This document shows, piece after piece, positions 23,011-56,300 of a stretch of 64,000 bases of DNA. The position numbers and the translations under genes are program-made. How positions within the stretch are numbered: the first letter of the stretch is position 1; each line of letters begins with the position of its first letter. The notes beneath the pieces are model-generated. The model ran no database searches. It was not told the origin of the DNA and saw only the letters and a program-made list of their open reading frames with translations. This DNA comes from Antedon mediterranea (lineage: Eukaryota; Animalia; Echinodermata): positions 17,219,432-17,283,431 of the forward strand of contig NC_092679.1 of NCBI RefSeq assembly GCF_964355755.1, in the 5' to 3' direction.

Positions 23011-23324
23011 TTATGGTTCAAGAAGGGCGTGCCACCTGCACACTTGATGACCTTTAGAGTCTCGCATCTCATTCCAATGTGCCAACTCTTCCTCGCTGCT
23101 ATTCTGCAGACCCATTGAGAACCAGCCTAAAGTCTCTTTACGCTTCATTGCACGTTTGTTGAAGACTGTGTAGAGTAACGTGACGTCAGGAAGCTGAAAT
23201 TGAGCCACTTGAAAGATGAACGTCTCTTTGAATGTCGGGTTAGGCTGGCCTCGTCGTATCGACGTCTTGCTCTTGGTCATCTCAAACCCACTCGACGACA
23301 TCAGTGACACACGCACATACGAAT
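23011..23324 (-). CDS. SYT14: SYT14-like last exon (C2B, C-terminal part)
   Basis: Acceptor AG at 23326-23325, phase 1; (D)SYVRVSL...HALLEP stop. Confidence 0.93.
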
Positions 23325-26300
23325 CTTAATATAATAAACAGTTTACAGTTTAATTGTATATAAAATTGATTGGATTGGAACTTAAAACTATAAAGAATAC
23401 GCCTACCAATTTAAAAAACAAAAAAAGACTTATCTAAGTGAAAGGCTCTCAATTTCTTTATGATACATACTGTGACATATTACAGTACCATGTGCTACCC
23501 TTCTACCCAGCATATTTCATTTAATAATCACTTAAAATATCACTTTGTGACCAACATGTGACTTAAAACGCCTATATTTCACTAACAAACTTCAAGTACA
23601 AAGTACAACACATACTTAAATTAAATATGTCGTACTTACTATTCTAAGTTATTGAAGATTAATAAATAAACCATCAAACATTGTTCGATGACGACAAAGG
23701 GAGTCAGACAACAAAGAGGTAAATAATGCAGTTATTTTAATAGCATTATGAGATGGCAATAATAGTTACACAAATTAACTGGCAATATGAATCAGGCATT
23801 TATGCATAAAAGTAGTGTAGAGGTAGCGTGGTGGTTAACATGCTTGCCTTCCAATCCCAAGGTCCAGGGTTCAATCCTGACCTATTGGTCTTTTAACTCC
23901 ACTTCTTAAGCCTCAAATGAGACTTATTCTATAAGCATGATAAACTATAAAATAGTTTATCCATCCTTTAATTAGCGAGTTTGTGCTCGCTGTTGGATGA
24001 GTATGAAATAAAAACTAAATAATTAAAAAAAAACTTACACAAATTAAAAACATTGTTGTAAAAATTTTAAAAATATTTACCTGGTGCACGGCCTGCAGCC
24101 AAATTCTTGAAATGGCTGCCTTTGAGAATTTCAACTGATAATCGGCCAGTCGTTGAGTTATAAGAAAGTCCGACTAAAAGTTCCGGCATACCGCCATGTT
24201 GCAACGACTGCAATGACGAGTTGCTTTCACTGTGTGATAGATCTGATGAACTAGAATATGGCGATGATGAACCACTCTGTATAAGAATAAAATGTTGAAT
24301 TTTACAGAAGGAAAGTAGAATATGAAATAACAAATAAGTAAATTATACCCGATTAACGCACACAACAAAAAATGTAACTTTTACATATATATTTCCTAAT
24401 TTTATCCAGTTATAATAACATATACACAATTCAAACAAGTAAAATGTAAATGCTGTTAAAACACGTACATTAGAACAATATGTACATATGTGCAGATATG
24501 GCTGAGCTACCGTACCTCGAATAGCTTGTTCACATATGCACAGATATGGCTGAGCTACCTCGAATAGCTTGTTCACATATGTGCAGATATGACTGAGCTA
24601 CCTCAAATAGCTTGTTCACATATGCGCAGATATGACTGAGCTACCTCGAATAGCTTGTTCACATATGCACAGATATGGTTGAGCTACCTCGAATAGCTTG
24701 TTCACATATGTGCAGATATGACTGAGCTACCTCAAATAGCTTGTTCACATATGCACAGATATGGCTGAGCTACCTCGAATAGCTTGTTCACATATGTGCA
24801 GATATGACTAAGCTACCTCGAATAGCTTGTTCACATATGCGCAGATATGACTGAGCTACCTCGAATAGCTTGTTCACATATGCGCAGATATGACTAAGCT
24901 ACCTCGAATAGCTTGTTCACATATGCGCAGATATGACTGAGCTACCTCGAATAGCTTGTTCACATATGCGCAGATATGACTGAGCTACCTTGAATAGCTT
25001 GTTCACATATGCGCAGATATGACTGAGCTACCTCGAATAGCTTGTTCACATATGCGCAGATATGACTAAGCTACCTCGAATAGCTTGTTCACATATGCGC
25101 AGATATGACTGAGCTACCTTGAATAGCTTGTTCACATATGCGCAGATATGACTGAGCTACCTCGAATAGCTTGTTCACATATGCGCAGATATGACTGAGC
25201 TACCTTGAATAGCTTGTTCACATATGCGCAGATATGACTGAGCTACCTTGAATAGCTTGTTCAGAGATTTTACATTGAGGTAACACAGAAAAGCTTTCAC
25301 ACATTTGTACCAAGTAAAAGATTTTTGTATGTGAATTTGGTATACGCTGTATTAACTAACTGCTATAATGTTCGCCTTGATTTTACTTACAGTATCGCTC
25401 CTGGCCAGGATTGGTATTGTAATTGTCTGCGTCGTTGTTGTATTGGTATTTAGAGACGAGAACTTTGTCACACATTCGCCAATTAACTGTTCCTTTCGCA
25501 TTTTCTCGGTCCCGAATAACCGAAACCTCATTGATGTGCTTGCTAATTCATGCGGAAAGAGGCGTGTGAAGCGAAATAGTTCTTTGAATTCTGGATTCTC
25601 ACCCTCGCGAATCCTTGTCTTTGCCCTTTGTCTCTTACTGGGCATGAGTGCCAAACGGACACGACAGCTTCCTGGGCCTCCTCGATCTTTAGAGGGTACG
25701 TCTGAAACTTTAACGACTGTGATATTCATCCTGCGTGCCTCTCCACTGTATGAGAATGCAACTTCCAATTTTCCGACTGTTGGTGGGGGTTCTCGAGGTT
25801 TTACCTGTCAAAAATTATATACAAGTCATTAATTATTCCATATTTTATAACTCCTAATGCTAGTGTTAGTGTAATAATAGCAAAAAAGTTTACTCTTTTA
25901 CTATGGTAATAAAAAAACAGTAATTATCATATCATATACCATATTTGGACGTATCCACAAATTGGGCTAAGCTTAGTTTTTAACCAAAATGATATAATTG
26001 GTATAAACTCACTTTGAGATACAAACACCTTATATGGATCTGGAGTGTTTTTTTGTGCTCTATTGGTCCTTGTTAAAGTGTGCGCCCTCTATTGTTGTGG
26101 TATTTGTACACTTATATGCAAATTATGCTTGTACACTACTGTATAATGCCAATCACGTAAAACGGCATTGAAAGGGACATTGTGGTCGAAGGCGGTGTTA
26201 TGTGCGAGGCCTTACAATTTATTATCAGTGTTTCCAGGATATGTATTGTAGTATCATACGTTATTGAAAGAATAAACCCTGCATAAAAATTAAGCCTTCG

Positions 26301-32300: not shown

Positions 32301-35300
32301 AAACATAAAGTTGTAGTTCCTCCACCAGGTATCTTTCAGAATGCTGATATGTACTGTAGACGGCGATGGAGACGAGTGCAACACTTATCCAACGAGTTTT
32401 GGTGTAGATGGCGAAAAGAATACTTATCGTCAATGCAGTCACGGTCAAAGTGGACGTCACCAAAGAGCAACTTCAAAGTTGGCGACGTAGTGCTTTTGAA
32501 GGGAGACAACGTTCCACGTAACATCTGGGAATTAGCCAAGGTTATTGCACTGCATCCAAGCGACGACGGGCTCGTAAGAAAGGTTTCAGTCTTCGTTGGA
32601 CGACGACAATCCGTGCTGGAAAGACCTGTGCACAAACTAGTGCAGTTGGTGCCAGTTGATTGAACTTATGAACTTGATAATACTAGAATCATGGTTAGCC
32701 ATGCTCTTTTATAAAATGTATTGCGAATAATATGGATTTTGGCGATTCGCCTATACTGATGATAATCTTTGATTGAATAGACCTTAAGTCTTAATCATAA
32801 GTAATTTCATTATTGTTTCAAATCCCCGTCAGTGGAGCCTTTATAACTTGATCGTGCTGTTTAATGTTTGTAATATGTTATTATATTTTATGTTTTGCAA
32901 AGATCTCTAGTATCGTTTGCAAGGGAGCCATGTTAAAGTGTGCGCCCTCTATTGTTGTGGTATTTGTACACTTATATGCAAATTATGCTTGTACACTACT
33001 GTATAATGCCAATCACGTAAAACGGCATTGAAAGGGACATTGTGGTCGAAGGCGGTGTTATGTGCGAGGCCTTACAATTTATTATCAGTGTTTCCAGGAT
33101 ATGTATTGTAGTATCATACGTTATTGAAAGAATAAACCCTGCATAAAAATTAAGCCTTCGTGTACGAGTTATTAATAAAGTGTCGCTTTATTACAGTCCT
33201 CATGAGTAATAATAGTTATGACCCCTTTAAGATCCTACAAAGTGTACCCTTAAATAGTTGTTAGTCATAGTGTTAACAAAATATATAGTCCTTCACTTCT
33301 TTCATAGGAGTGTATTACCTTAGGGGTGTCACCTGAAAAGGATTTCCCAAAGGAGGGGATTTGTACTGGAATCTACTTTATTGTACTCTACAGGGATTCT
33401 GTTGGGTTTTCCCCAAATGTCAAGGTTTAAAAATAGCATTTATCATGTTCTTGAATGTTATAGCTATAATTAGCATTGACAGTTGTTATTCATTAACACA
33501 ATACCAGGTAGTTAATATTATACATCTTTTATTGTCAGATACCTGTATTATAGTGGATACACCACAGATACCCACATATTAAATTATTATTATGAGATAC
33601 CTTCATATTCATAAAGGTCATAATACTGCTACTAACTGTAAGGTTCATTAAACATTGTATCAGTGTAAACATGCCAAAAAGAAGTTCTTTTTGTATAGAT
33701 AATCCTAGCTATTAAATATAACAATACTTGTGGCCACTGTTTGAATATGTATTCTTTAGTACTATGGTTTCATTTTAGGATAAGATTAAACAAATGTTTT
33801 ATGTATCAAAGAACTCAGTTGTCTCAGTATTGTACTTTGCTTTCCCATTATGTATCTATACTTTAAATACTATATTTCCAGTTTTAAAATATGGATACAC
33901 CCATCCTCACTACTATCTACATAACCATTGTAACCCTTTAAAACAACTTTGAAAGTTGATGGTCTCATATACAGCTATGTAAATGGTATAACACGAGTGG
34001 TGTAACGCAGAGACATGACGCCCCTGGTTTAGGGACGCAAGTGGTCCTCCATCGCTGGAGACCATCAGCGTTTTAATTTTTTTCGACATATTTTAATGCA
34101 TGTTTTCTTCTTCTGGGCCTGCTCCGGGGCCCCTGGGTTTAGCAAGTGAGCGCTCATAGCCGTTACTTTATCCCCATCTGGTTACCCTTAAAACAACTTA
34201 AAAGTTAATGGTTCCATACATGTTTGTATCTCTCTCAATCTAAATAAATTTACCTCTCCTCCCTCTAAACCAATTGTATCGTTTTCATCATCCTGGTCAA
34301 AGAGTCCAGCAGAAGAACCAAAACTACCGCTGCCTACGGTGCCTTGTTCTACATCACCAAGATCTTCAGTGTGTACTGCGAAAAATATCAAAAAATAAAA
34401 CGTTTAAAATAAAGGACACAACACAACAATGAAGATTATGTTAAACAAGAGATTAAAAAAACAACAGTCAATTAAATTTTCAATTAAAAATTCAGCTGAA
34501 CAATATTTCACAGAAATCCATCCCCATCCACCTCCTCCGCACCAGAAGAATAAGCTTCTGCATTTTTTGTTCAAACTGATTGGTGCAAAAGTATTCTCGA
34601 TTATAACATAACAGACACAGAGTGCATCCTTGCCATTCAGTACAGTACTACTATTATACGGAAAAGTGATATTCAATGATGATTTTTAATGGTACTATTG
34701 TACGATGATTTTAAGAATTTTGTGAGAACATGTACTACTACTGTTCTATTCTATGTACACAATATGAGCACTACCTTTTGAATGGTATAGCATTTGATAT
34801 TGATAGTGGAGTCTGTTAGGGCTGAAATAAGGGAGAATATATCCCTGACATACTCCACTATAATTAAAGATAGAAGGAGCAGATTAACTGAATATAAGTT
34901 TACTTTAAAGCTCGGTCTACACTATCAAAGTAGTATGACAAAAAAAGTGTGATGTGCTCAAATATAATATGACATCATCATTTCCATATATGGGCACATC
35001 ATATTTTTTGTCACATAAGGTTTGATAGTGTAGACAAGGCTTTGAAAAAGATTTGGTGTGTTATAAAGAAAAAAACATTCCTCCTATTTAACTCAGAATC
35101 ATTCATTATTTGTTGAAAATGTTGTGGAGGAAAACAATTTATTCACTAAAATATTTGTTCAATCTTCCTGCAAGTGCTGAATTGATCTTTTCCCGAACTC
35201 AAATTTACTTTAAAAGCACATGTATCAGAAAAATATTTGTTTATACCAGCAACAGTAAATTATGCTAATTGTAAATTATATGCATATGGCATAACAAGGC

Positions 35301-38300
35301 AATATATTAATACAGTAGTATGCATTGTGTATAAATAACCTATTTCCGAGAATAATAACAATACTGTTAATTAAACATTGTTGTTGTTGTTATGTTAGTA
35401 TATAATTGCCATTTATAGTTCAGATATTAAATAGTGCATCTCAAATGGGGTTGGTGACATGTTCCTAACCACCAAACCATAGGCCTTTACAAAACAATTT
35501 ACAAAATAAAATAATCATTTTCCTTCCTAAAAAAACTTTGAAACCATCGTAAAACTATCTAATACATCATTTGAAAAAAAAACCCACAAAAAATAATTTC
35601 CATTACAACAATCAATGCAATGGATTTAGATTTCACAGTAAATTTGAACTACATGCTTCTTCCTTGTCCAAGACAGTGGCTGTGTGAACTAATACACCCC
35701 GAGGTAACTCTCTACTTGTCTTGTAAGATGTACTACTGTAGGTTCCTTTTGAATACACAATATTATCTGGGATGTATAACTCTAAAATTATGATAGATAC
35801 AAATCAATCATATAGTGGTCACCATATTATTTATTGCTGATCTACTGATCTAGTTAAAGATAGTATGAAGATATTATATTGACTTGTGATATAAAAAATG
35901 ACATAATAAAAGTCAAGTCTATTTCCAGAATAGAATAATCTATTGAAAGAAAGAATGACTATCTAAAGAAATAATTCACATATTTATAAATTCTAAAATA
36001 AACCACTTCATATTTGAAAGGGTCAAATTAACAATGGCATAATTATCTATAAAACTAGATAAAAGTATTATGATTCAAAAAGTATATAAAGATTGTGGTA
36101 TTAATTTTACTACTTAAATAGGCTGTTTGGCCATGAACTGGAAGGAACCGCAAGCCACATCGGGTAATCATGTTTTGAAAGTCTGATTTTTCCCCATAAA
36201 AGTCGACAGTTGGTAATCTTGTCAGACACACAATCAGTCATTCCTGGTCAAATCCATCAGTACTAATACCAGTCGCTGTCCAATCATTGAAACTTCAAAA
36301 GAATCCCTCCTTTTCAAACTAGATGCCAGCAGCATAAAGTTATACTAGTAGTTATAAATTGTGGTTACGATACAAGCTTACTTCACTTAAGAAAGTGACC
36401 CGTGGTAGTTCATGAAACCTTGGTTTAAGTTTTATAATACAACATTTTGATAAAAAAGACCTAGATTCCGCAACTGGGTTCATACAGCATGTAAAAAATT
36501 AATATAGTAGTTTTAGTCTTTGGGCTAGTTTACTGTATTTTATGGCAATATGCATAATAAACAATCATATATTTATATTTCAAATACGGTAATAATAAAG
36601 ATGATTGACAGCGATGACCATGCTGTACTAGCTTTAATAAACACTAAGTGTACTGGTAGGCTAAGCCAATATGCTAAAACAAGTATAACACATTAAAAGC
36701 CCCAATGGTGAGTGACTCATAATCACATAACAAAAACATATAATTGAAAATGACATACATAGATTTTGTTCATTCCGTATTCTCACGCAAAGTTCGGGCC
36801 TACCGAGTTATGGTTTTGTATCATACACAACAATATACAACTGAACTAGGAAGAGATTAGTGGAAGCCACCATTTACGACACTGACCTTTTGTTTGTTAC
36901 GAAATCTATGGGTACAAAATTAATGTATATTGCTTATGATATGAAAGTCATACACCAACAATTTTGCCCACCTCATCCCCCTCCCGCAACTACTGTTCTG
37001 CGAAACATCAATAAAAATAAACGTTAATCAAGTTGAACACTTTGCAGTTACGATACTAAACGTGAACTGGTTTACGATACAAAAGCGTAACAATCTATCT
37101 GAACATACTTTATTCTAAAAACAACAAACTGACAGCAAATCTTTTAAGGACATCATTAATACTCATAAATCATAAAATCAATAAACAATCCAGATATATT
37201 GTGTTTTACCTCTGTATACATATCCTGACCTCTCCGAACTTGTCCACGTACTACTACAAATTGACGAATCATCAGAATAATTAAAAGCAAAGCCAGCTAG
37301 TCCTGCGTGATTTTGAAGAAATGATGGATTGTTTTGTAGTCCTGTTTTACTACTGGCACTTATATACTCGTCCTGTTGTTCGTCCAAAATGTTATTTACC
37401 TCTTCGGCGGTATTCACGTTAACAGAACCATTTGCCTTCGTTTCATTTGATTTCCAAAAGGTGAAAATTCCAAAGCCAGGCTGTCCAAAACTAAAATTTG
37501 CACAACAACTCAAGCAACCCATGCTTTTAAGCTAACTATTCACACACAAATGAAAGAATCAGTGAATCGAGTTAAAGTCAATATGCAAATACTAGCAGGT
37601 CACATAAATTGACCTTGAATGAATTCAACCATTGTAAAGTTGAGAAAACTAAAAGCCTGTGGTATATGGCTTTTAACTGAGATAATATGGGTTTATGAAA
37701 TGTACAGAAACGAGCTTAAATTTGAGATTATGTTCTAATTATCAACTCAAAAGTTCATAATCATAAAACTAGATTTTCTAAACCTAGAAACTCAATTCAT
37801 AATAAAACACTATCTGATAATGTCCGTATACATAACAGACTCAATTATTGATACCACTAATGTTCAATATAAAACTCATGAGAAGGAAGTCTTGATTTAA
37901 CGTTTTGATCTCTTCCTTTCAACCATTATAAATATGAACTGAAAATTATTGACAAATGAGGTCTATGATTTAAACAAATCTGGTGTTTTTTAATTATATA
38001 AAAATCCTTTTTTTCTTGATCAAATATATTATTCTGTTAAATATTTTTAAGGTGTTTCATAAGGACCAAAGTAGAAATATGTTTGGCAGGGTTATAGAGT
38101 TACTCTAAAACTAACCACGACACTCAGAAAGTGTTTTCCATTTATTTAAACATTATTATTTGATAAAATATTTGTAGAAATTAAAATGATTTCAATTTGA
38201 AAACATTCTAAAACATTTAATTTTGTTCATTAAAAAGCAATTAAAAAGTAAATATACGGTTGAATTGCATTCAAATTTCTTCAAAATATCAAATTTGTTT

Positions 38301-41300
38301 TGTTAAAATACAGTTTACTATTCATTTCATTTCTCTTGTTTTTATTTCAGACTACATATCCATAAACTGTATATATCCACAAACTGTATAAATAGGCCTA
38401 CTGTGCATGTGTTTAAATTAAATAAAATGACAAACACTTTCCATTTTCTAAAAGAACCTTTGACTATAATATAATATATGATAATTATATGCTTATAAAC
38501 AAAAGACCAGAAAAATAATACAGAAATGGTTCACAAACCATGAATACTAATTGAGAATTATGAATACCTAATTAGTTGAAAAAGCAATTTATATATTTAT
38601 ATTCATGTGAACACAATCAAGCACACAATGTTAATATTCTAATGTATATTGTATGGCATGATCATTACATTATCAACTGGATTTATCCAAGATGATCTCA
38701 TTATCTTGTCATTGGTTGTAATGAATCACCAATCATTCATCTTTTTGACACAGCTCAGATGTACCATGTTAGTTCACTGGGGAAAAGCAGCTTTCACACT
38801 GCGCCCGGATTGGGAAAAATATAAAAATCATGAAATATTGTGGAAAATGGGTTCAGTGGAAGATCGTTCACACCAAATTTGTATGATTTGAATCTGTACC
38901 TGATTTGGGCTCCAAATTTGTAGCGATGGATCAAAAGCTTTGTTTTCTGAAATCATACAATTGTTTTCTTTTGTCCAATCAGCAGTGAGCATGAATGACC
39001 TCGCTTGACAACAAATAACCGAATTTGTGCATAATGTGAAGGCACGCTCGCTATATTTTTATAAGAGCGCCGGACCGAATCCGGCGTAATATGATGGCCA
39101 CATGTGTACACTGGACCTCCATCCCACCCTCTGATATTTCACCCTATGATTTACTATAATTATATGTGAAACTCAAATTCTACATCCTAAACCCAATTGT
39201 AAGCCTGTCTGTTCAAGGTAAGGCAATTGTACCCAAGTCATTGCTGATGTATTAACATTGAAGAATTATCCAAATGATGTAAGTGTAAGCAACTTTGACC
39301 TCCTACTTTCAATGTTCAAACCAATCCTAATCTAATATTTCCATAAAAAACAACGATTTTTAAAAATCAAGGCAATGCAAGGTCTTAAAAACCATTGTCA
39401 CAACTGTATGCATAGAATGCCCACTGATGACAAAAGGTAATCCTTATGCACATACACAAGTTTAAACCTCTTTATTTGTTAAAGATTAAAGAGACTGATA
39501 TAGGACATATAAGATTAAGAGGAGACCACTGAATAAAACTACATTACAACAGCAAGTGATATGGGCCAGTGAAAACCATAAAGCACCTAAAAGCTGGAAC
39601 CAACCATCTTCATCTATCTGTTATTATGAATATCTACAACTTTGTGAAACTTTTCTAAACTTCTTTCAAAGACTATAAACATTACAATCTTAAATTTCAC
39701 CTTTTACACTGCTAATTTTGATGATTTTTTTTTACTGTAAATAGTTTATATATTTTCAGTTAAGGGTCACAGTTGTTGTTACGGATTTGGTTTACTTTTG
39801 TGTCCGCTGACTATCATCTCAATCTGTTTTTTGTTTGTCTATTCAATGTTTTTGTCATGGTAATAAAGTACGACAATAAAAAAAAAAGAGTGAAAGCTAC
39901 CAATTGTATGTACCTAAGCAGCATTTGTTACATAGCAAAAAGTCTATTTTGGTTTACCAAAGGAAAAAATACAAACATAAATCATTTGAAACCAGATGAA
40001 TTTTTTTAGAACATTTCTTAAATGTTTGACATAAGCTTCACCAATAACTACTTACAATCTTCAGAACTTGTTTGAAAGTTTACAATTTTGTGCAAAAATC
40101 CGAGAGTGAGTACTGCACCACCATTCATTTCAGCTGAAGAATCCTTGTCTACTTTTGGGCTAAGTAATGCAGATTTTGCTAAACTTGTCCACATATTTTC
40201 CTTCTTTTTTGATTCAGTTACCAAGTTGCTTGTTTCCATTTTGTTATCTTCCGGGTTGTGATGCGAAAAATCTGGAGAAGCTTCCGTGCCATCATTCAAC
40301 TCAGCTGAAGAGTCTTTGTTGCCTTTTGACCTATGTAATGCCGATTTTCCTAGACTTTTCCAATTATTTTTCTTCTTTTTTGAATCAGTTACTAAGTGGC
40401 TCATTTCCATATTGTCATCTTCTGGTGCGTGATGCAAAAAACCGCAGCATCTTAAAATCCAATTAATCATTTTTGTTGCTGGTACTTTCCACTTTTCACC
40501 ACAACACCAACATATACTGTACCTTGTAAACTTAATGTCACCATGAAATGAAAGACAAACTAATAAAAAACAGCAAAATAATTGACAATATGGCATGTCT
40601 CTAGGTATACAAACAACACAATGCTGGCAATAAAATGTTACCACAATGTGTATGGCCCTACATTTTTACAAATGAAGAACATCGACAAATACACTAACTG
40701 TATGGCAAAATAGTTGACTTTGACAAATTTACGCCTCGAATCAGTAGACCAAGTTCATATTAACAAAACTATACTAATCTACATTTGTATAAAAGAGTGT
40801 ATCTAAACTTAGTTTAATATAATAGGCTTTGTATTTACCATTGACACTTCTTTTTGGAATAGCCCATTTTTTAACCTTTGCTATTTTAATTAAACAAAGT
40901 AATTGAAATTAGAATTTTTTTAATTCTGATTGTGAATAGTTGGTTTAGTTTAATGCCTTTACACCGAGTAGTCTTCTGACCACTTCACCTGGGCTGCTTT
41001 GGTGAGGTTGCAGATGAGATCTTATTATTAGTAACAATGCACCCAAAAATAATGGTAAAATTCTTACTTTAGTGGCCATATATAATTACCTATAGAAATG
41101 TATTAATATGATTTATACTGCAATTGGATTGTACTGCTTATGATTGTTTTTATTGTAATTTTCATTTCTGTGTATAATATATATATTTTTGATTGCTTTT
41201 GTCCGTTTTTGTTTTGGCATCTCTGACACAAGCATTTGCTTTCTTGGTGCCGCCACCATTATTTGGAAATAAATGTTATTTTGATTGATTGATTGATTTA

Positions 41301-44300
41301 ACTAATACCGAAAATACAACTACAGGATAGAATAATTTCGCTGAAGACCTCTTTGAGATCAGAGGTTGGAATCTATAGCTCACCACTTTATGAATGAACA
41401 TCGAGGTATTGATGAACTACATGCTATACATGGAAATAGAAATAAAAAGAACAGAAATAGGGTCAGCATCGCTTATTTGCATCAGCATTTTTCACCAGGA
41501 TCACTATTTTATTAAAGAGCTCCTAAGGAGGTTGGAACCACTTAGCTCACCACTTTAGTAGCAGTATGCCTACAATTTCCATTCAGAAAGTTAATATACT
41601 GTACAGTATGTTACTTTATGAAGTTCATTCTATTGAATTTACCTTGAAATTAAGGCTAAAGCAAATTGCTTATTCGCCTCTCTGGAATTACACATCTCTT
41701 ACATACGGCTGAAACTTTTGGTGGTGGTTCAATGACTTTGACTCTACTACAACTCTCGGCAAAGCGTTCCAATCGTTAACTACCCTTGCTCCAAAATTAT
41801 TTGATCCCCATTTAGTTTTGACCCGCAGCTTTGATAGTTTGAAAGAATGACCTCTAGCCTGTCTAGGTTTAGCTTTATCTTTCGCACCATGTTTATCACC
41901 GCCGCCGGTAGCCATGATTGTACTACGATGAATAAATATAGGCCTATGTGACAACAGTAGGCTAAGAATTTTAATCTCGAAAAATAAACTCAATCCTAAT
42001 CCTTAAAAACCCACAACTCAGATTTCAGTAACCTGTTCATGCAATTATTTAGAACGTTCTTTTTGTGGATAACCATACACTGTAACTGCTTCATAAACTT
42101 GTACATTGAAACAAATTAAAATTGTACGGAATCAAAGTAATGAGCAATCCAACTAGCAAACAGAAAATTTGTTTAATAAATCAAATAAAGTCTAAAATTA
42201 CAGTAAGTTGAATTTACAGATATTGGCAGATCACGTATCAAGTACATTTGCTAGACTAAAAAGTAAAGATGGTTACATTAGCTAGTTTTGAAATTATAAA
42301 AAGGTAAATTTCTAGTACTGCTGCTGCAAACAATTACAAACATTTTAGCACCATCATGTATGGTGACAAAATACCAAATCATCTCTTTTAGATTTGAAAA
42401 CATTTAACCATAGAAATATTATATAGTGGATATCTCTATGATTAAACTAATAATTCATCTATCAATAATACATACCAGATTCTGAATCATTACCAAAAAA
42501 AGACACCGGAGAAAATGCATTGAAGAAGCTTTTTGGTGCTTGTTTGGTAGGTGGTAAACTAGATTCTTCTGAACTATTGCTTAAGGAATGTGTACTTTCA
42601 TAGCTTTTTGCTAAAGACTTGCTGCTATTGCTGTTTATCAATTTATTGATTTCCACTGATTCTTCATCAGATTGTGGTGTACATTTACAACAAAAATGGA
42701 ACAACCACTCCATTGATGATACTTCTCTCAAAATATATGTAAAGTTTACTTAGGAGAAACAGTTTCTTGGATGTAATTGGTCAAAGTACTGTATATAAAT
42801 TCAAAAGGAGCAATTAAAATTCAGTCACCAACATTACCATGAGGCAACTCTTCTTGGTAAAAAAAGGAAAAAGTACTTGGGAATACACATCAACTTCAAG
42901 ACAGAATCCAATGGAATGCTTTTAAAGAAAAAGTTTCTTCAGTTAAAGTACTGCATATAAGATTGAGTAAACAGCAATTCAATGCAGTCACCAACAATAC
43001 CATGAGGCAACTCTTGTAGCTAAAAATTATTATCAGGTACTGTAATATTCTAGTTTTAAATTCACACTCTAAAAGTCAATGGCAGGGTTCCTTCCTGCAA
43101 CAGATATTCCAGAATGATTTGTGAAACCTGAATTTTAATCTCGTCAGAAGTTTCCTGATTGACTTATTACAATAAGTAAAAACTTCCAAATTGTCGATGT
43201 GAGCAATTATTTCTTGATAGAATATTTTCAAAAATACATTTCAACTTTAGAAAAATAATTTAGAAGCATACTCTATGTGTAGTACACTTTATCAATAATA
43301 GAAAAGCAAAATTAAAACTATAGCTACTGCATCAAATTGTAGACATTTTCCAAGTCCATTTGGTGACTGTATAAATTTACTTCAGATGTTTCCGAATAAA
43401 ATAACTTTTAATCAAAACTGTTTGCTGCAACAACAATACTACATATAATTAGAATAATAAGCAGTAATAATTATAGTTTAGACAATAATCAATCCGACTT
43501 TGAGTTAAAACACCAATTCTAGTGAAATAATACTGAAAACAGCAGGTGTCAATTGTTCTTGCAGTTTGAATGGAATCTCTAAAAAGTAAACCACAAATGG
43601 AATTTTTTTCCACCTTACAGTGAGTTAATAATAACAACCTTGAATAGGACCAATTTTAAATGCATCAATAGTTTAAAAATGTACAATCATATCAACACTA
43701 TTTATTTTTAGTATTAGTATATACAAATTGTGTACAATGAATTGTATGGTCTATAGCAATACCAATGATGGAAGAAGAAGAAAGGTCATTAGTTCAAGTT
43801 GGCTTATTATTTGTCAGCAGCCAGTTGGTGACCATAATCTCAAGTCTGGTTTTAGTAGAATCACTACAGATAAATTATATTATGTAAGTAAGTTCAAATG
43901 AGAAATGAACACTAGTAAAGTTAAGTTTGGGTTACACCATGTGATTACAAAAAATAGAGTAAGGTTGAGAATGTTCTTCTTCAATCATCTTCTGGAAAAT
44001 GGTGCAACTAATGACTAATCAAAATATGATAAAGAGAATCATTCACATAGAAATCCAATTATTATCTATTTATTCTGATGAGTTGTTAAAGCGTGGTTCC
44101 CACTAGCGACGCAACGCAAGGATGTAACGCAACGCAAGTGAATTGACCAATCCCAAGCGATGGCTTATTCGCTTGTGATTGCTAACTGTCTATAACTTCG
44201 CTTTTCATTGGTTAAAACGCTTGCGTTGCGTTTACGTCCTTGCGTTACGTTCTAGTGGGAACCAAGCTTTAATGTCGTATGAGCCTATAACTTTTGCTAC

Positions 44301-47300
44301 CGATGGGTGTGACCATGATCTTTCTAGGGAGTTGGTAGAAGAGTTTCAAATATCCATTGCGAGTGAGTTGTGGCTAGCCTAAACTTCAATAAATAAATAT
44401 TTAATCAAGTTACAGTTAGTAAAAAGCCAAAAAAATATAATAAAATAAAATATGGACAAAAAGGAAGGAGAGAAAAGGCAACTACTGTACATGCATATTG
44501 AGCTAACTTCCATTTAACAAGGCCGGCTGAAATCGCGTGCTCAAATTTGAGTTAGTGTTTACCGACCGACCGACATAGTGAGATGTAGAGTCGCGTGCAA
44601 ACGTGTGAGGAAGTACTTACCACCAGAGCAAAAACTACTGTCAACTGTGTAAGTAAAAGTTGGAATCTTTTTAGCGGGAGTGCAACTAGATCCATAGGAG
44701 TAACTTGTTGATGTTGATGAGCATTCTGAAGAATTTAACTTTGATGATTTTTGTTCTTTTGCCTTTAGTAGTAACTGGCTATTTTCCAAGCATTCATCTT
44801 CAGAATCCAACTGTTCTGAACAACAACATTTTAGCACATAGCACACCATTGCATCTGGTGACAATTTAATTATACCAATCTCAATGGTAAATAATCCAAA
44901 ATTAATTTTATTATATATTTGACAACGCACAAAGCCTCAATATTGAAATTTATAATCTTCACTTAAAAAGTAACAGAGTATGTTTATGTTCAAATTTGCA
45001 GTAAACCATCTGGAGTATAATCTTAACTTAAACAGTAAATATATCTTTAAATAAAAGTCCAAATTGGAGACAAATTTTCTATACAGTATATTCCATAGTA
45101 GGGAAAGTACTGCACTACTACTACAGTACCGTATACAACATCTAAGAATCCAACCGAAGCAACAAAGTGATCACAAGAGATTGTACTGGTAGCTGCAACG
45201 ATATTATGAACATCTGGAAGGATCATAAAATCTTTAAACTGTCCATTTAGAAATCAACTGCTAACAACGCTGGTATCAATTTACCTTTGGTATATTGCAC
45301 CAAGATACAATAAAAAAGTTATTGATGCACTTTACTACTTTTACTTAGCATCAGTGAAAATGTATTACAGGATAGAAATATACCATTAAAACTGTCCTTC
45401 TAGAATACTGCAGAATGGATAAGTTTGGTGCCTCACAAGCACATAGAAAACCATACATACCCCACACAAAAATGTACACACAAATGCCAAAAAGTATACA
45501 GTATGGTCTTACTTGTGTATTTCAAAAGAGCTGTGATCATTCATATAATCTTATTCATTGTTCTTCTAAAAATAGTGTTAAATACAAGCCAACATGTATT
45601 CACTTTAAAACAAAAGGTATTGCTAGGCATAATTAATTGCTAAAATAAAAGCCACTACAGTATGTTAAATTATAAACTCTCTGAAAAGGATTGAATATAC
45701 ATATATTCTAAAGTCAGTCAGGGGATATTTGGTTTTGCAACATTATGGCAAGTTGAAACTGTAATGTGATATTCTACAGTAGTGTTTTCAACAGGAACAA
45801 AGGTCTATAGCAAATAGACATTTTATTTATAGGAATATGTGTGCAAATATATATTTTATTTATAGGAAAATGTGTGCAAATAATCTAAGTTTAATGACAT
45901 ACATACAGTAGTCGATAACATTAATCGCTTTATTCTAGATAGTAGGTATGATGTATACTATTGGTGAAATAAGGAAGATGTAATTTTGTTATGTTTTATT
46001 AATGTTATGGTTGATAAGTTGATTAATATTTTAGACCTAAAATAGATTTAAATAAATTTGTAGAGAATGTTTTACCTGCTCTTTCTGGTTCCACGTTTGG
46101 TTCAACGTTTTGTTCACCTTTGACATTTGTTGGGTAGAATTCCTCTGTACCTGCACTTTTAACTGACGAGGGCCTTCTAGAATGCTCATAGTCTCTCACG
46201 CTTGGAGATCTTGAACGTCGGATCTCTTCATCTGGAATGTCTTGTGCATCGTAAGGAAAGTCAGCTAATGACCCTTTCCGATAATCTAAATCCCCAGGTT
46301 GTGCAAACTCACTGGTTGCTCCCCTGATAACAAGCTCATCGTCAATAAGGTATTCTCCCTCATTATTTGGATCATTCTTTATTTCTACTAATCCATCTTG
46401 TTCATCATTGTTGTTATTATTCTCTCCATTTTCTTCTGGTTTTGGCTCTTTCTTTTCCAAACCAAAGAATGAGGTCACAGATGTGAAAGAATCTCCGACA
46501 GAGTCTCCTATTGAAGTGACCGTTGAAGAAACACTGTCGCCGATGGAACTAAACTTTCCACCAACCGTAGAAAAAAGATCGTCCAACGGCATAATGATGA
46601 TCACAAAGTTAAAAACATTTAATAAAACACAACTGTCCTACTCAAAACAATAACCAAGACTATCATAGTTCCAACAGATAATGATGCGTCAGTATGCTTC
46701 CAACAAATCGGCAACAAAATTCCATATGAACAGAAATTTACATCGACAGAGGTGTGAAAAATCTATAAAGTTTAACTGAATCTGTTCCAAAAGGTAAATA
46801 CAGGTTTGGTACTCTTCTCTAACAGATGTTCATTCCCAAGGAGACTACAGACTATAAGACCTGAAGCTTTGCTATCTACATGCATATAATACCTGCAATC
46901 AATTAACTAGAATATTAATATGACCATGGACCATGACGTAATCATGGATAAATAAATAGTTAGATAATGAACAAAAAAAACATTGGGAGTAGTACGAACA
47001 CATAAAAAAAAGTTCAAATATATATACGGTACTTTCAAAGTTATTATTTTCATAATGTTTTTAGTTTGTTTTCAGAAAAATAAAAAATTTAAAAGGTGAA
47101 TGATTAATGATACATAAAAAATGTCAAATTATTCAGATATGACGGATCAATGAATATACTGTACATGCAGTTATTTAAATTATCAGATCTTTTGAATGTC
47201 AAAAAATGCATATAAAATAATTTAAATTATCAGATTTTTGAATGTCATAAAATGCAATAAAATAATTTAAATTATCAGATCTTTTGAATGCCATAAAATT

Positions 47301-50300
47301 ACATAAAAATTAGGTCAGGTAGTGTTATTCTATTTTACCTAACTTTAAAATGTATGAGTTAAACTATACTAAACAGAAAACTAATTTTCAAATACTCAAA
47401 AGTTCCTTCAATTGTTTTTCTTTAAATCATCCTTATAGTGATCATTCAATGTATCAGAAAACTCAAGGAAGGAAAACCCTGGAACGAGTTACCAGATGAA
47501 GTGTTAAACACCAAACTGTACTGGAACAAGTTACAAAATGAAGCGTTAAAACACCAAACAGTACTGGAACAAGTTACAAAATGAAGCGTTAAAACACCAA
47601 ACAGTACTGGAACAAGTTACAAAATGAAGCGTTAAAACACCAAACAGTACTGGAACAAGTTACAAAATGAAGCGTTAAAACACCAAACAGTACTGGAACA
47701 AGTTACAAAATGAAGCGTTAAAACACCAAACAGTACTGGAACAAGTTACAAAATGAAGCGTTAAAACACCAAACAGTACTGGAACAAGTTGGAATAAGTT
47801 ATGTTAAAGATGCAACTTCACCAGAATTGCTGCACACAAGTAACATTTACAATTGGAATCAAAAGCTTTTTCAGATTAATGTTTGTAGATCAGTTCCATT
47901 TTACGATATATCTTCATCCATGGGACACTTTTAGAAAATTATACTCCTAATAAGCGTACATGTTTCAATAAACATTCAAACACAGATAGAACTTTAACAA
48001 ATTGTTGATGGTTCAGTACTTATTTCAAGTCTCAACTACAACTTCTTGAAATTACATATCACATGTAGATTAGAAACCGAGACAACGTGTATTCATGTTT
48101 GTTCTCTAAAGGCGTGCAGAGAACAAACAGCCAATCAATGATAAAGTATAAAACACAACAAAAGGATAAGGACAGAGAATCAATATTAGTTTGGAAAACA
48201 AACCGTTTATATAGTTCTTTACTGAACTTGAAAGCAAAACAAGTTGTAAGTTTACATAATGTTTGAATCATTGAAGGCGTGTTTATGTTGATTGTTGAGT
48301 CGTGTGACGTGATCTAAGTTGGATCGGCTGGTGCAAAGTATGCATAAAGAGTGGAGAACTTTAATTCAAAGAATATGGGAATTGGTCATGTTAAAATAGT
48401 CTATTTTGGATCTGTTGGGGGAGTGCACAATATTGGGAATACACGTTTAACATTCAATTGATCCTATGTTTCCTGTACTCTGACATAATTTTACTATAAA
48501 AAAAAAATTCAGGTAATTCAGGGGCATGACATAAACCCATGACGTTCACTAGCCTGGTGATCCTACCTATAGACCACCAATCTTTCTCTAATAGGTTCAA
48601 GCGATAGATTCAAGCCAGGAAAATTTAAAATAAATTTACTTATGTATTGAAACGAAAGAGGCCTCAAGAGGCCTAATGGTGGAAGTACCATATTTCATAT
48701 TTAACGCAATTCACAATTGGCTTATAAAATCATTTATTGACTTGATTGATTTTCCCTCCCTCCCTAATATCCACTACATGTGCCTATTATTGTATACATT
48801 TTAAGTTTAACAATTACAAAGTGTCATAATCAATATTAATATTGATTTGCCATCTAGTATATCACAAATGATACAATGCCGTAAACACACCAAAACTTTA
48901 TTATTATTATTATTGGCAGTACTATATGTCCCATTTATTTGTATCAACAGAATATATATACAGTATTTTTTTTCAAGAATATTTCTATAAGTTTAATCTA
49001 AATCATAATTAATGGAAAACGTATTTGATACAAAACGGATATGCAATGAGCCGAAGCACATTACCCTATAATACCGATACCGATATCTAATTAGCAAATA
49101 AAACAAAATTAAAAATAGAAATAAAATGTTAGCCCAATTTTTGTTTTATCGATACATTTTCAACTTGTAGAATTTAAGATTAATAAAATAATTGACAGTG
49201 TAGTTAAACAACAAGCTGTCGCTCAACTATTTTCAGCAAAATCCTGTAGGCAGGATGTTCACAGGAGATTATTTTCCGCAAAAGTGGCAAAAATTGTCAC
49301 AAGCCATGCAAAAGCAAATGCTAAGCTATTTGAAAAGGGCATTTCAGGCAAAGAGGCAACTGGTTACGAGCTTCAGCGATATTTTCAACTATTTGTGCTC
49401 ACGTTCAACCTAGTGACTGGTTCGTACAACGGCAATCAACATTGAATTTGTCACAACACAGAGAAACTCAATAAAACAAGTGATTAAAAGAGTTTAAATT
49501 TAAAAATTAAATTTACTTATTCAGGATAAGTTGGAAGCAAATTGTAACAAAAATTTAAAATAAAACCAAAATGTATTATATAATATCTAAAATTCTTGTG
49601 ACAATATAATATATTAAGAAATAACTTTAATAACTATGTACATTCTTGGTTTTTAAATATTAAATCAAATAAAAACATACTACTCTAAAAATGAAATTAT
49701 ATTTCATAATAAATAAGTACCATAATATTTATGCATAGTCAAATAAAAAGAATTGCACTATAATTTACAACATAATATATTTTTTTATTACTCCTGTCAT
49801 TCAAAAACTTACTTTTTTATATGATTAATATTTATCAATAGGACACAAATAATTTGTATAACACTACTTCCCTACTTAGCCTAAAGATGGAATGGTTGGA
49901 AATACACGATTTTAGTAATTGTATAACTCGGCACCTCTATTTATACGTCGTCTCAAGACCATTCTTTTTATCCAGTAGTTTGAGTATTGTTAGGCGATCT
50001 GTCATATAAACGCTTAATGATAGTAATAATAATATATAACAACAGATCTTTTTTAATAAACTATTCAGAATTTTTTTTTCTCAATAGGAGACTTTATAAT
50101 TTGTTAAAACTGTATACACACTTTCTTCTTTATTGTTTTTTTCTCGATTTGGTTTTTTTTTCTCCAACAATAAAAGAGTTTCAATTAATCTGCAAAAAAA
50201 AAAAAAAAAACATTTATAACACTGTATATGATAACATTAATTTCTACTTGAGGTAATATAATAATATACAAGATACTGTATAACAGAGTAACTTTAAACA

Positions 50301-53300
50301 TTTACTACAGATGTAATTAATTAATATAACTGTACATAATTGTAATATAACTGTACATAACTGTAATGTAACTGTACATAACTGTAATATAACTGTACAT
50401 AACTGTAATATAACTGTACATAACTGTAATATAACTGTACATATTCAAATTACTTTATTTAAACATTTTGACTAATAATCTAATTGTATGCACTGCAAAT
50501 ATAATTACAGTAATAATGCTATACCTAACATTACATTAATATTATTTCCTCAATAAAGGATAACTATTGTAGTATTAATTTAATATGTAATTTAATATTA
50601 TTAACTAAAATTATCAAAAAAACTCAACAATTAAAATATGCAATAAAGAATAAAAAAAATCCCCTTTCTAATGACCTTTTTTGAATATGTATAAAAATAT
50701 TAATATATGTAAATATTATGCAGTTGGTGGTTATATTATGAGCCATAGCAAAGACCATTAAAATGCTAACATATGTTATAAAATAAATGCTATTTTACAA
50801 ATTCTAAACAACCAATCGTAAAAAGGTGCAAAAGGAAAAAAAAAGAACCAAGCAAATGGATACTTACACAAATTGACATGCAAAAATGGTTGATAAGCAT
50901 GATGATTGTGATGATGGATGAATGGTGCTCTACAAAATGCTACAAAAAAGTTGTAAAATCTTCATCCAAAAAAACGCATGCAATCCACGCGGTATCACAA
51001 TGTGTGGAAAAAGATGCAAAAGAGAGTAAAATGTTTGTATCTTTAAACAATTAAATTTGTTTATAATCTTGATGTCTTTTAAAAGCTATTTAGAATTTGA
51101 AAAATATTTTATGAAATGATCCACTATATAAATTATAGCGGACAATACCATTGTACATTTCACAGTGTACAGTTTTGTTCAAATTCAAAAAATGAATTTG
51201 AGAAACTTTTATATAAAAATCATCTATTTGAAATAAAAAGAAGTATTTTGATTATTTAATATAAAGAAAAACTCACATGTAAATACATCTGTTATATAAA
51301 GAATATTTGAAAAAAAGAAGAATATTTTAAGTTGTATTAGAAATATAGTAAAATTAGTATGTGATATACTGTATAATAAAGTATCCATGCATTTATCAGA
51401 GTATATAAGGAAGGGTCTGTTCAGACTTAAGTTATTTACCCAGGTAAGTTGGTTTCATATGCACAGTAGGTATAGAAACCAACTTTACTCTGATACAAAT
51501 AACTACAGTAGGCCTACAATAACCCTGAATTTACATAAAGTCAAATGTTGTGATAAATGGTTAATATTACATATAAATATTAGCATACAGCAATGCAAGA
51601 ATATAGTATTAGTGCAAAAGATAAAGTCACATGACCATTAATACAATAAAAGCAAACATAAATATTAATATGAAGTTTTTATTTCGATAATATTATTTTA
51701 ATGACTTGTTTTTGTATCACTGTATTTTCACTCTCTCTCAAATGATGAGCCTAGTACCCAGTGTATTTTGCATTGAATACTATGTCGGTGTCAAAAGTCT
51801 GAAGGGCTGAAACAGGTACACAGGGAGACTGTTTACATACTATAAACCTACATATCACATACAATTCATATACAGTAACAGTAGTACTAATAGTAGGCCT
51901 AATCCAAAAGACTTGTTTCATCTACAACTTGAGCCTCCAATAGGTCACTTGACGCTGCTGTATCCCAACAACTCAATTGTTGATGCTATCGATTTTCTTA
52001 GGCCTCTGTCATCCTTTGGAACGGTTTACTCATCTTTATCTGTCAGGCTACCTCAATCGCTTAGTTTAAGCCTGCTCTGAAAACTCACCCTTTTCTCTTA
52101 TTTTTCAGATTTTTATTTATTTTGTTATGCGCAATGCTTTGCATTGTGCGCTATATAAGCCCATTTATTATTATTATGTTTTATTATCGTTTAATATACT
52201 ATTAGTTTAAACAATTTTTTTAATACAGTACTATCCAATGCAACTCCTGATAATATTAATAGTATTTAAAATATTTTGTGCATTACCATACTGATTCAAC
52301 TATAAGGTTACCCTGAGCCACATTCCCCTCCCCCTTACCCAAACTTGACCCCGATAATTGGTGTCGGAGAGGTCATGGAGCATGACCCTATAATTTAGTC
52401 AGTATGGTTGTAGTTGTTATCACTGCAAGCTTACTTCTTGATTAGTATCCTTTTAAAACTTAATTATTTTGATGTTACCTGCAATGTAAACTTTGGACTC
52501 TGTGGTTTTTTTAAGAAGGTTATAAAAACTTGATTCTGAAATGATTGCATTTTTATAATGGTATAAACAATGAACATAATGAATAGACAACACGAACCAG
52601 AGTGGTGCTGGTGCTGGTGCTGGGTGGTCTATACCTGCTGTTTAACTGGATAAACCAACATATGCCGTTTCCTCACAAAAGGGAGAACATAACTTTCCTA
52701 AAGCGTGGTTCCCACTAGCGACGCACCACAAGGACGTAACGCAACGCAAGTGAATTGACCAATCACAAGCGATGGCTTATTCGCTTGTGATTGCTAACTG
52801 TCTATAACGCTTGTCATTGGTTAAAACGCTTGCGTTGCGTTTATGTCCTTGCGTTACGTTCTAGTGGGAACCAAGCTTTAACAACTTTGAACGCCTGTTT
52901 AACACAGTGGTATAGCCCATGAGCCATGGTGGCAAACTTTACCATTTGAATGTGAATAAATTATTAATGAGGAAAACTTTCCAAAAAGAAAATGATATTG
53001 GACAAATTTTGATACAGTATGAAGAATTACATGATCCATATGTAATGTAAATAAATATAACACGCCAGCTTAATGAAAAACAGTGAGTCAATGTTTGTAC
53101 TTGTATCCCAATAAAATCCACAAAAATGGGAATGTCTTATTGAACAATAAGAATATCCGTATGATATGGACCTAAGACTTACTTTCAGAGGGCACTCTTG
53201 ATGCAGCTGCTACAGACTTCTTCTTATAACCACTTATGCTAGGCTGACGAGAAAGGCGACCGAAGCTGAGAGACTGCTGGTACTTCAGTAACATCTCATC

Positions 53301-56300
53301 ATCACTGTCTGATGACGATTCATCTTCATCATAGCCATAGCTTCCTTCTAAAGAATAAAATGATTAAACAATTTAGCTTTGACTGAATCAGTTTGTTTAT
53401 TAAGTGTAGGTTTCAGTTCTTTGATCCAAAGCATTTCCTTAATTAAACAATCAAATTTGAAACTTTTAATCATTTCAGGATATTGTCTATAAATCCAAAT
53501 TTGATTTGACTTAATAAACAAACAGAATAAAATGATTAAAGAATGAAATGAAGAATAAAATGATTGAAGAATTAAATGATTAAAGGACTAAATGATTGAA
53601 AAATATGAAATGAAGAATAAAATGACATGATACACTGTAAATGTCCGGGGTTCAAATCTTGATAATCTTTACAGTGCCAAAAAACACTGCTACTGATATT
53701 TATTCTACTTCAGTTATTGCTGCAGTAATAAACGTAATACAGCAATAATAATGTTAGTTTACTGCAATAACTGCAGTAGTATAATTTTCACGAAATCCCA
53801 AGCTTTTTAATGAGAATTATATTCGATTTATGTGTTTAGTATTTTATTCTACAAACAAGTGGAGTAAACTTGATGTGAGATATGTGCTAAAATTCAAAAT
53901 AAAGTTACTATAATTATCATACCCAAGCCTTGTTTTTGTTTTTTCTCTTTCTCCTTTTTCCCTTCCTCCATGCATGGACATCCTCCGCAATTGGCAAAAC
54001 ATAGTGACTTACTTAGGTACAAGAAGAACAAGATGACCATGAATAGAAGGACGACCACTACAGTGAGGAACACGATAGCCTGGTCAGGAACTGAAAATAA
54101 ATTATTATTATTATTATTTTAATAAAAATAGGAATTTTCTTTATTGAGGTTTTATTTATGCACTGCAGTAATCTGAAAGGCTATTTGGGTCATTCCATGT
54201 CAGATCACCCAATGGTAAACACCCTACTGACTCGGATTTTAATGAAAATTGGTACAGGTGGTTATTAGCCTAAAAAAAGCTTAAATATAAAATTTTACGT
54301 AATTCAGAAAAACAGATTAAAAGTTACGGGCTGGACAAATTGTGGAAAAAACGCAAAAAACCGTAAAAATGGGTGCGGCCGCCAATTTTCAAAAGGCCAT
54401 AAAACAAGAACTACAAGTCCAATTAAAAAAAAATAAACAGTATGGGAAAGGAAATGCCCCAAATATTCCAAATTTGTTATCAGAATTGTAGTAGAATGTC
54501 TTAAAATATATTTGACCTTTTGATATATAAAATGACCCCCGGTTTGACCTTGTGGAACGTATATTTTTTTAATGTCATTACTTTTTTTTTAAACTATAAA
54601 GTGGTATTTATAACATATGTAAAATGCTAAGATGTCTTTTACCTCATTTAGAAGATATAGTTATATCATGTTGTCTGGGTTTGTGTTTTGTATCAATCTA
54701 TGTGTTAATTGATATACCAGGAGGATATTGATGAAGTAGAATACTGTACAACAAGCAATGGGTAACAACAGACCGCACAACATTAATAATGGTGAAAAAG
54801 TATTGAAGAATGCGGTGATGAGCTACTGTAGCTGACCAAATGAAGCTAACAAGGCACCAGTTACTGTTGCTGAAGCTCAGGGGTCATTTATCCTTTGCAG
54901 GAGATGATTTTGCTGAAAATTACGCTTTTGTCATCCAAGATGAAATAAAAAGCTTTCACTGGAAAAACAAACAGGCAACACTGCATCCATTTGTAGCATA
55001 CAGATGTGAGATGGATGGAAATTTATCTAATTGCAATACACTCAACAACAGTGTGGACTTTCCAAAAAGTTGTTTTAAATCATTTGAAGGGTAAATTTTA
55101 CGAAATAAAGAAGGTTCACTACTTTACCGATGGATGCGCAGGTCAATATAAAAATAAGTCCAATTTTATCAATCTATGCAATCACAAACATGATTTTGAT
55201 TTAAATGCCGAGTGGAACTTTTTCGCCACATCACATGGGAAAAGTGAATGCGATGGAATTGGGGGGACATTACAACGACTGGTAACCAAAAAGAGTCTAA
55301 AACGTCCATATCATAATCAACTACTAACATCAATAGACATGTTTAATTTCTGTGTTGAAAACATTCCTGGTATCATTTTTTTTCATTTATGGGAAATGAC
55401 TGTTTTACCTTTCTATTTACTTATATTGTTCTATGTAAAAGGGTCCTACAAAAAAACAAAGCTACAGCTTTTTTATGCAGGATCCCTGTTATCAGTTGTA
55501 TTGCAATTATGTTGTAATTGATGACTAAATAAATGTGGAATAAATTGAAATTTCATCCGAAGAAATTAAAGAATCTGTAGCCCGACTGAAATCTCGATTT
55601 TCTGAAGCCAAAACCATCAAAGGCACCCTTCAACTGCACAGATTTGTACCGCAACAAGATGGTTCTCTTATGGTATACAAGTGCACAAAAAGATGAACCA
55701 AGGAAAGTAAACGTAACAAGCTGCCCATCAACATCTACTACATTTGCACGAGAAGTTCCACAATATGCAATTTCTCAAAATCATTTTGTGGCGTGTTTGT
55801 ATGATGGTGTGTGGTGGATTGGGATGGTGCTGGATGTCATTTCAGCTGAATTTGGTGACTAAACAGTACTTTAAATCATTTATGCATCATCCTGGTCCTT
55901 CAAAAAATGTCCATTGGCCAGATAAAGCTGATGGATTGAAGAATCAAGTGACCTATGTCTTATTGATGCACCATCACTAACATCATCATCAAGTAGGAAT
56001 TTACAGTATATCAAAACAAGAAGAAGATGCAATATTGACTACTTTCAACAGGAATGATATCTTTCAATAAAACATTTATAGAGGCAATGTAAAATATAAC
56101 TGATTAAACATGTTAAACGCTGTTTTTCACATAGAATTTGTTTGATGTGCAATTTTGAAAGCCTATAAAATAGAACTGGTACAAAAGACATCTTAGCTTT
56201 ATCTAACATTTTACAGGCAAGAAGTGTGAAAATATAAAAATTAATATTTAAACATTATAATTTTTGTTCCACAAGGTCATGGCAAAGGTCAAATTATAGG

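Follow-up and report, generated by a model that had tools for sequence, protein, structure and literature searches.

The stretch analysed here, referred to as the window, is 64,000 nucleotides (nt) of Antedon mediterranea DNA (contig NC_092679.1 of assembly GCF_964355755.1, positions 17,219,432 to 17,283,431). Its minus strand carries a synaptotagmin gene in which one C2A-C2B body is combined with alternative N-termini. Four constant exons encode this body: the first constant exon, with the common phase-1 acceptor at 34375 (34254..34375; RefSeq mapping and a contig of an RNA-like sequencing run), the C2A exon (25391..25804; RefSeq mapping, Pfam and alignment to SYT1), an exon for the linker and the start of C2B (24081..24276), and the last coding exon with the remaining C2B and the stop (23011..23324), the latter two placed by RefSeq mapping. 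The Pfam C2 family was matched twice in the constant body. The top matches of the C2A exon were RefSeq synaptotagmin-14-like isoforms of Antedon mediterranea, the best 120 of 1174 matches to C2A-C2B were all SYT14/16-like, C2-domain or unnamed proteins, and identity over C2A-C2B to echinoderm and hemichordate SYT14/16-like proteins was 67–71%. Judged by sequence, the locus is the crinoid SYT14/16 gene (Craxton's Syt16 group). In an alignment to SYT1, two of the five acidic positions that we take to be calcium ligands were kept in each C2 domain. By this alignment the C2 pair lacks most calcium ligands, as expected for the family; SYT14 has been described as lacking the calcium-binding aspartates (PMC8164606). 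A lead concerning a U12 intron in Syt16 is found in PMC2831892; every donor checked here was an ordinary GT.

Five RefSeq isoforms (X1–X5) were found for the gene. X2–X4 are transmembrane (TM) forms, and their mapping gives the canonical form, an N-terminal TM helix followed by an acidic juxtamembrane segment, as in SYT14/16. The TM exon with its Cys-rich juxtamembrane tail (53923..54090, minus strand; hydropathy 3.45) was matched exactly by X2–X4, as was the juxtamembrane exon with its acidic Ser/Asp tract and phase-1 donor (53183..53347, minus strand). An earlier note on this DNA had given 53183 as the end of the juxtamembrane exon, and had overlooked a 57-nt phase 1-1 cassette exon (52479..52535, minus strand), present in X2 and X3 and missing from X4, together with the upstream coding exon of only 25 nt with which TM isoform X3 begins (61217..61241, minus strand), located by exact mapping of P0002. 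For X2 and X4, the initial 15 residues had no match in the 64-kb window. By eye, the juxtamembrane exon also has an acidic dileucine-like motif past its Ser/Asp tract, as do echinoderm and hemichordate homologs.

Between the juxtamembrane exon and the acceptor at 34375, the earlier note had proposed five TM-less alternative first exons, designated A–E. All five frames were re-derived on the minus strand with lengths of 313, 415, 238, 229 and 517 nt (all 3n+1), each ending at a GT donor compatible with the phase-1 acceptor. Scripted joining to the four constant exons (34375–34254, 25804–25391, 24276–24081 and 23324–23011) reproduced the predicted products of 452, 486, 427, 424 and 520 amino acids (aa), each closed by one stop at its end. 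A scan of the 18.8-kb intron (34376–53182) for ATG frames of at least 70 codons with a phase-1 GTR donor returned exactly A–E on the gene strand and two frames on the opposite strand. At 76 codons, five frames were found on the gene strand vs one on the opposite strand, and 300 local shuffles gave a mean of 0.32 and a maximum of 2. The five frames are non-random, far above chance. None of the 17 read variants in A, B, C and E introduced a stop.

Exons A (37210..37522, minus strand) and E (46076..46592, minus strand) are both annotated. A joined to the constant body is letter-for-letter identical to XP_071963786.1 (isoform X5), and E joined to the same body to XP_071963782.1 (isoform X1). The read data came from five sequencing runs, none of them recorded as RNA. 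One was guessed to be RNA, and a contig of it skips a GT-AG intron that a DNA-like run keeps; three others are DNA-like, share one sample and are probably near the source of the window, and hence are not independent. In the RNA-like run, the splice from 37210 to 34375 was present in a contig of depth 76 that begins at 37543, 21 nt ahead of the ATG of A. The same joint was missing from the DNA-like run. A second contig of this run (46080–46841, depth 22) covered exon E and 249 nt upstream, ending 4 nt short of the donor. Both contigs were continuous through the upstream sequence, past in-frame stops, with no upstream exon. Exon A is an alternative first coding exon spliced to the C2 body, and E is annotated and transcribed.

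The product of A opens with Gly2 and Cys3, Cys6 and Cys7. E is free of Cys; its residues 1–45 form a predicted amphipathic helix (helical hydrophobic moment of 0.35 vs 0.10 when shuffled), followed by an acidic disordered region. E is orthologous to the first exon of an Anneissia japonica model, with 129 of 175 alignment columns identical. The earlier note's reading of alternative first exons was thus borne out for A, through the contig junction and X5, is matched by annotation for E, through X1 with the Anneissia ortholog, and stays a prediction for B, C and D. An internal phase-1 donor of strong appearance (GTGAGT) at 46313 (minus strand), past codon 93 of E, could yield a shorter E; the RNA-like contig reads through it.

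Exons B (40056..40470), C (42476..42713) and D (44621..44849), all on the minus strand, are predicted first coding exons, recognised by their open frames, their donors and their profile rank. They are alike in carrying a Cys pair at residues 8–9 and an acidic dileucine-type motif at residues 21–22; the Cys cluster extends over residues 8–11 in C and 8–10 in D, and the motif lies at 21 in C and at 22 in B and D. A profile of 11 non-crinoid Cys-cluster starts, applied to 465 ATG peptides, ranked D first, the upstream ATG of B second, C third and B eighth. The start of B is uncertain: a further in-frame ATG (40596) precedes it by 42 codons, and the site at 40559 is plausible as a phase-1 acceptor. 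B also contains a 171-nt (57-codon) in-frame tandem duplication (40091–40432), the copies being 75% identical and the second retaining the dileucine-type motif. When A–E were aligned pairwise, only B–D (p = 0.0005) and B–C (p = 0.007) of the 10 pairs scored above shuffles. B, C and D are probably a tandem triplet that arose by copying from a single ancestral exon.

Paralogy of all five exons on the protocadherin pattern was considered and rejected, with only B–D and B–C aligning above shuffles. The earlier note had likened the locus to the protocadherin and UGT1 loci; as a comparison with paralogous arrays this does not hold, since only B, C and D resemble each other and a Pfam search matched no family in any of the five variable exons.

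For related species, RefSeq isoforms were retrieved, so that counts are lower bounds; near-duplicate starts were counted once and junctions were judged from protein sequence. TM-less N-termini that differ from one another and stop at this same junction numbered at least four each in Lytechinus variegatus, Strongylocentrotus purpuratus, Asterias rubens and A. amurensis, at least five each in Amphiura filiformis and Patiria miniata, and at least two in the hemichordate Ptychodera flava. Among the models retrieved, only TM forms were found for Diadema (5), Glandiceps (2) and Apostichopus (1), while Anneissia and Acanthaster each gave one TM-less model. At least two Cys occurred within the first 30 residues in 19 of the 28 TM-less starts from the six echinoderms and Ptychodera. 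A dileucine-type motif fell within the first 60 residues of 11 of these 19 Cys starts; over 2067 residues lying farther along these variable regions, it occurred twice. In the Cys-free class, the amphipathic moment exceeded that of shuffles (p < 0.05) in seven of eight 18-mers. Gly2 recurs in four urchin and sea-star starts, and most A-type starts of other species are without it. Profiles of the Cys-free and Gly2-Cys4 classes picked none of A–E, and no Antedon exon of the urchin and sea-star Gly2-plus-dileucine type was found.

Outside the echinoderm and hemichordate clade, 34 of the 82 listed matches were TM-less, and 19 of these retain the juxtamembrane motif after the new start. A Cys pair within the first 30 residues was present in 17 of these 19 proteins (16 from molluscs or mollusc-like unnamed records, including several oysters, and one from a ribbon worm). 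Proteins of amphioxus, Lineus, a termite and Ciona (var2) likewise have a Cys-pair TM-less start ahead of the juxtamembrane segment. Because these non-ambulacrarian starts join the juxtamembrane segment and not the next exon, their positional homology with A–E is at most putative.

The array of alternative first coding exons at this SYT14/16 gene, annotated for A and E and predicted for B–D, is thus real and conserved, and its architecture was itself already known. Craxton (2010) described TM-less N-terminal Syt16 variants in S. purpuratus (two, among var1–3), Ciona (among var1–2) and vertebrates (among var1–2) (PMC2823689). The earlier note had suggested that such an array was novel for a synaptotagmin; given these variants and the RefSeq arrays of other echinoderms, this was overstated. 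Its statement that mammalian SYT16 lacks a TM helix was incomplete, as mouse Syt16 var1 has one (PMC2823689). Craxton's variants share with the Antedon exons the arrangement of TM-less alternative N-termini on a common C2A-C2B, and S. purpuratus var2 and var3 correspond to the D and A types (PMC2823689). Antedon differs in having five TM-less starts, three of them unannotated and apparently a tandem triplet. By protein sequence, the junction differs as well, the TM-less start joining the juxtamembrane segment in Ciona, vertebrates, molluscs and amphioxus, and lying downstream of it in echinoderms and Ptychodera. The main text of PMC2823689 contains no mention of palmitoyl, acylat, myristoyl, promoter or first exon. 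In mostly open-access literature, no publication was found on anchor classes at this locus, on the matching Cys-pair start of molluscs, ribbon worm and amphioxus, or on an adjacent crinoid gene combining an A-type start with C2A. The present locus adds three candidate exons, missing from the Antedon mediterranea annotation, and a testable model of anchor swapping, set out below.

We consider it likely that A and E, and probably with them B, C and D, each serve as first coding exon to the exclusion of the others, probably with separate promoters, and would swap the TM helix for predicted lipid (A–D) or helix (E) anchors. In this model, each variable exon, ending in phase 1, would splice to the acceptor at 34375, bypassing the TM and juxtamembrane exons. 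N-terminal hallmarks of acylation (Gly2 and/or a Cys cluster) occur in A (Gly2, Cys3, 6, 7) and in B, C and D (Cys8–9), and neither occurs in E. A–D are predicted to be acylated, the A product by myristoylation at Gly2 with S-acylation and the B, C and D products by S-acylation at Cys8–9. The acidic dileucine-type motif would sort B–D to endosomal or lysosomal membranes, a step to which we give about an even chance. E would bind the membrane through its amphipathic helix. The earlier note's idea of an anchor swap gained from the motif analysis, in which Cys clusters open A–D and a predicted amphipathic stretch opens E. With one putative promoter per variable exon, promoter choice would set the site of the C2 module and the reversibility of its attachment, leaving the module itself unchanged; the module so placed, short of most of its calcium ligands, would be calcium-independent.

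Gly2 with a nearby Cys pair is also found in LAMTOR1/p18, with which no homology is claimed. LAMTOR1 carries a dileucine too; in Antedon, Gly2 (A) and the dileucine-type motif (B–D) are on separate exons. The LAMTOR1 N-terminus has Gly2, Cys3 and Cys4, and its palmitoylation targets the protein to lysosomes (PMC6454084). Variable-first-exon clusters, including those of protocadherin alpha/gamma, UGT1, GCNT2, plectin and NOS1 (PMC1885805), are organised as is proposed here, tandem first exons each being joined to common constant exons. In UGT1 and GCNT2, the variable exons are paralogs that resemble each other, have nearly the same length and come with a conserved promoter motif (PMC1885805). 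Unlike these, the Antedon exons vary in length from 229 to 517 nt and form three unrelated classes, coding only for short targeting tips and disordered linkers. Heterogeneous first exons of the plectin type, which steer localisation, are closer in spirit.

Several observations weigh against this model or limit the support for it. Among the 251 ATG peptides of at least 45 residues in the window, only four combine CC in the first 12 residues with the dileucine-type motif in the first 45, and three of the four are B, C and D, which speaks for the model; the combination had, however, been spotted in those exons ahead of the count. The C–D pair fell short of significance (p = 0.077), the profile of the non-crinoid Cys-free class placed E only at rank 21, that of A's class placed A only at rank 4 with no strong link, and the related species are not independent. 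Out-of-frame ATGs lie within 75 nt upstream of the starts of B, D and E. Of the junctions to 34375 predicted in the earlier note, the single RNA-like run contained that of A, and none was seen among its listed joints for the donors of E, B, C or D; for the B and C donors, there was also no loose end among those listed. The contigs of C (depth 3) and D (depth 8) read through their donors into the intron, and that of B (depth 2) is at intron background level; such low-depth contigs are uninformative either way beyond the junctions not seen. B, C and D were in none of the five RefSeq isoforms found, and an alignment search for longer proteins bearing them returned none among 1612 candidates, which is weak evidence. 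Read variants were mostly non-synonymous in B (8 of 9, some of them possibly repeat mis-assignments) and C (3 of 4). In one alternate haplotype, 12 substitutions and 3 indels fell within 42161–44050, none of them in C, too few to indicate constraint.

The missing junctions, the lack of above-background RNA cover, the absence from RefSeq isoforms and the protein collection, and the residue-changing variants of B and C would all be expected if only A and E were live and B, C and D were copies of an old first exon in decay, relics of a birth-and-death process that are rarely or never spliced. However, in all three exons the frame is open (76–138 codons) and ends at a phase-1 GT donor, the two motifs keep their register although identity is only 24–27%, the internal duplication of B is exactly 57 codons, and the absence is judged from a single RNA-like run. 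We consider relics unlikely, and are fairly confident that B–D are expressed first coding exons.

Selection of the N-terminus would fall to splicing, not to promoter choice, if some of B, C and D were internal phase 1-1 cassettes, or first coding exons on a shared non-coding leader. A genuine phase 1-1 cassette is present at the locus (52535–52479), and the scores of phase-1 AGs ahead of B (40559), C (42748, 42724) and D (44854) are no lower than true acceptors can have; those just upstream of B and D, which also count against the favoured model, reach the 81st and 93rd percentile (true acceptors 67–100) under a weak model built from 7 sites. Against this, the contigs of A and E run upstream past in-frame stops with no upstream exon, starts of homologous type open annotated proteins of other echinoderms, Craxton gives the D-type start of sea urchin as a variant with transcript support (PMC2823689), and the distance from the ATG to the Cys pair is fixed in B, C and D. 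We therefore regard selection by splicing as improbable.

That the exons are real and their products soluble C2 proteins, with Cys and dileucine-like motifs serving metal binding, disulfide oligomers or protein binding, is highly improbable. In its favour, N-terminal Cys of other synaptotagmins mediate dimers (according to a reference title in PMC2823689), acylation is here predicted from sequence and most A-type starts elsewhere lack Gly2. Against it, Cys clusters beside hydrophobic residues at a cytosolic N-terminus, together with Gly2 in exon A and in the four urchin and sea-star starts, fit the acylation pattern of LAMTOR1 (PMC6454084), and such clusters recur exactly where the TM helix is missing, in 17 of the 19 non-ambulacrarian proteins of this kind.

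Mutually exclusive first coding exons with different anchors may also be placed in a wider setting, which we put forward tentatively and consider somewhat doubtful. SYT14/16 may be an ancient anchor-swap gene, in which a Cys-pair first exon of early bilaterian origin (molluscs, ribbon worm, termite, amphioxus, Ciona) was expanded in echinoderms to five or six addresses (the TM helix, a myristoyl-palmitoyl tip, a palmitoyl tip with dileucine, an amphipathic helix), with promoter choice setting the organelle for one calcium-independent C2 pair and one crinoid address exon founding an adjacent single-C2 gene. SYT14 has been tied to human ataxia, with little else known (PMC8164606), and SYT16 is usually described as simply TM-less (PMC9393329). 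If the wider proposal is true, TM-less vertebrate SYT16 would not be soluble and would use its N-terminal helix as an anchor. The interchangeable targeting tips would offer a natural series in which TM, lipid and helix anchors can be compared while the cargo stays constant, and cheap tests of where the protein acts. As a separate observation, the TM-less N-terminus of tetrapod SYT16 appears amphipathic by eye, like class E, and joins a different exon (PMC2823689, Additional file 32).

A paralog lies convergent to the main gene on the plus strand (9204..17950), identified by mapping of P0225 and by its open frame of about 324–328 aa. It comprises an A-like first exon (9204–9516), a short exon (about 11735–11820), a C2A exon (16475–16873) and a tail (17762–17950), with neither TM helix nor C2B. 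The frame at 9204 was the top match of the A-type profile, ahead of A itself, and aligned to exon A with a score of 61 vs 25.5 ± 4.5, which was reached in 0 of 3000 shuffles. Its C2A is about 36% identical to that of the main gene. P0225, an unnamed 325-aa full-length ortholog, matched all four pieces, with 82% identity over C2A, and was the only close relative among 437 matches. By this gene model, an A-type tip paired with C2A alone forms its own gene next door.

A third, putative single-C2 gene, more divergent, lies head to head with the paralog on the minus strand (8776–8758, 5295–4130 and 3943–3557). An inverted copy of the paralog start (73–78 nt, 88% identical) ends just past a GTAAGC donor. 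A 19-nt first exon at this place would join the phase-1 acceptor at 5295, giving a candidate open frame of 524 aa that opens with a Cys cluster. A PIF/Harbinger element, its family assigned by eye, is suggested inside a paralog intron by a transposase-like frame (12084–14490, plus strand) and a Myb/SANT-like frame (13302–16285, minus strand). A hydrophobic frame of 222 codons (931–1596, plus strand) resembles an exon of a multi-pass membrane protein.

The intron that separates the first constant exon from C2A holds, in antisense orientation, a Pao/BEL-type retrotransposon (26541–32663, plus strand) with one open frame of 2040 codons, Pfam matches to Peptidase_A17, DUF1759, DUF5641 and an integrase zinc domain, and short repeats at 26139–26327 and 32999–33187 as putative long terminal repeats (LTRs). 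Two copies (44087–44272 and 52699–52881) are present of a short element of very high copy number, which has inverted arms and resembles a miniature inverted-repeat transposable element (MITE). Intronic tandem repeats were found at 47463–47849 (43-nt unit), 50301–50464 (21-nt unit) and 61734–62345 (18-nt unit).

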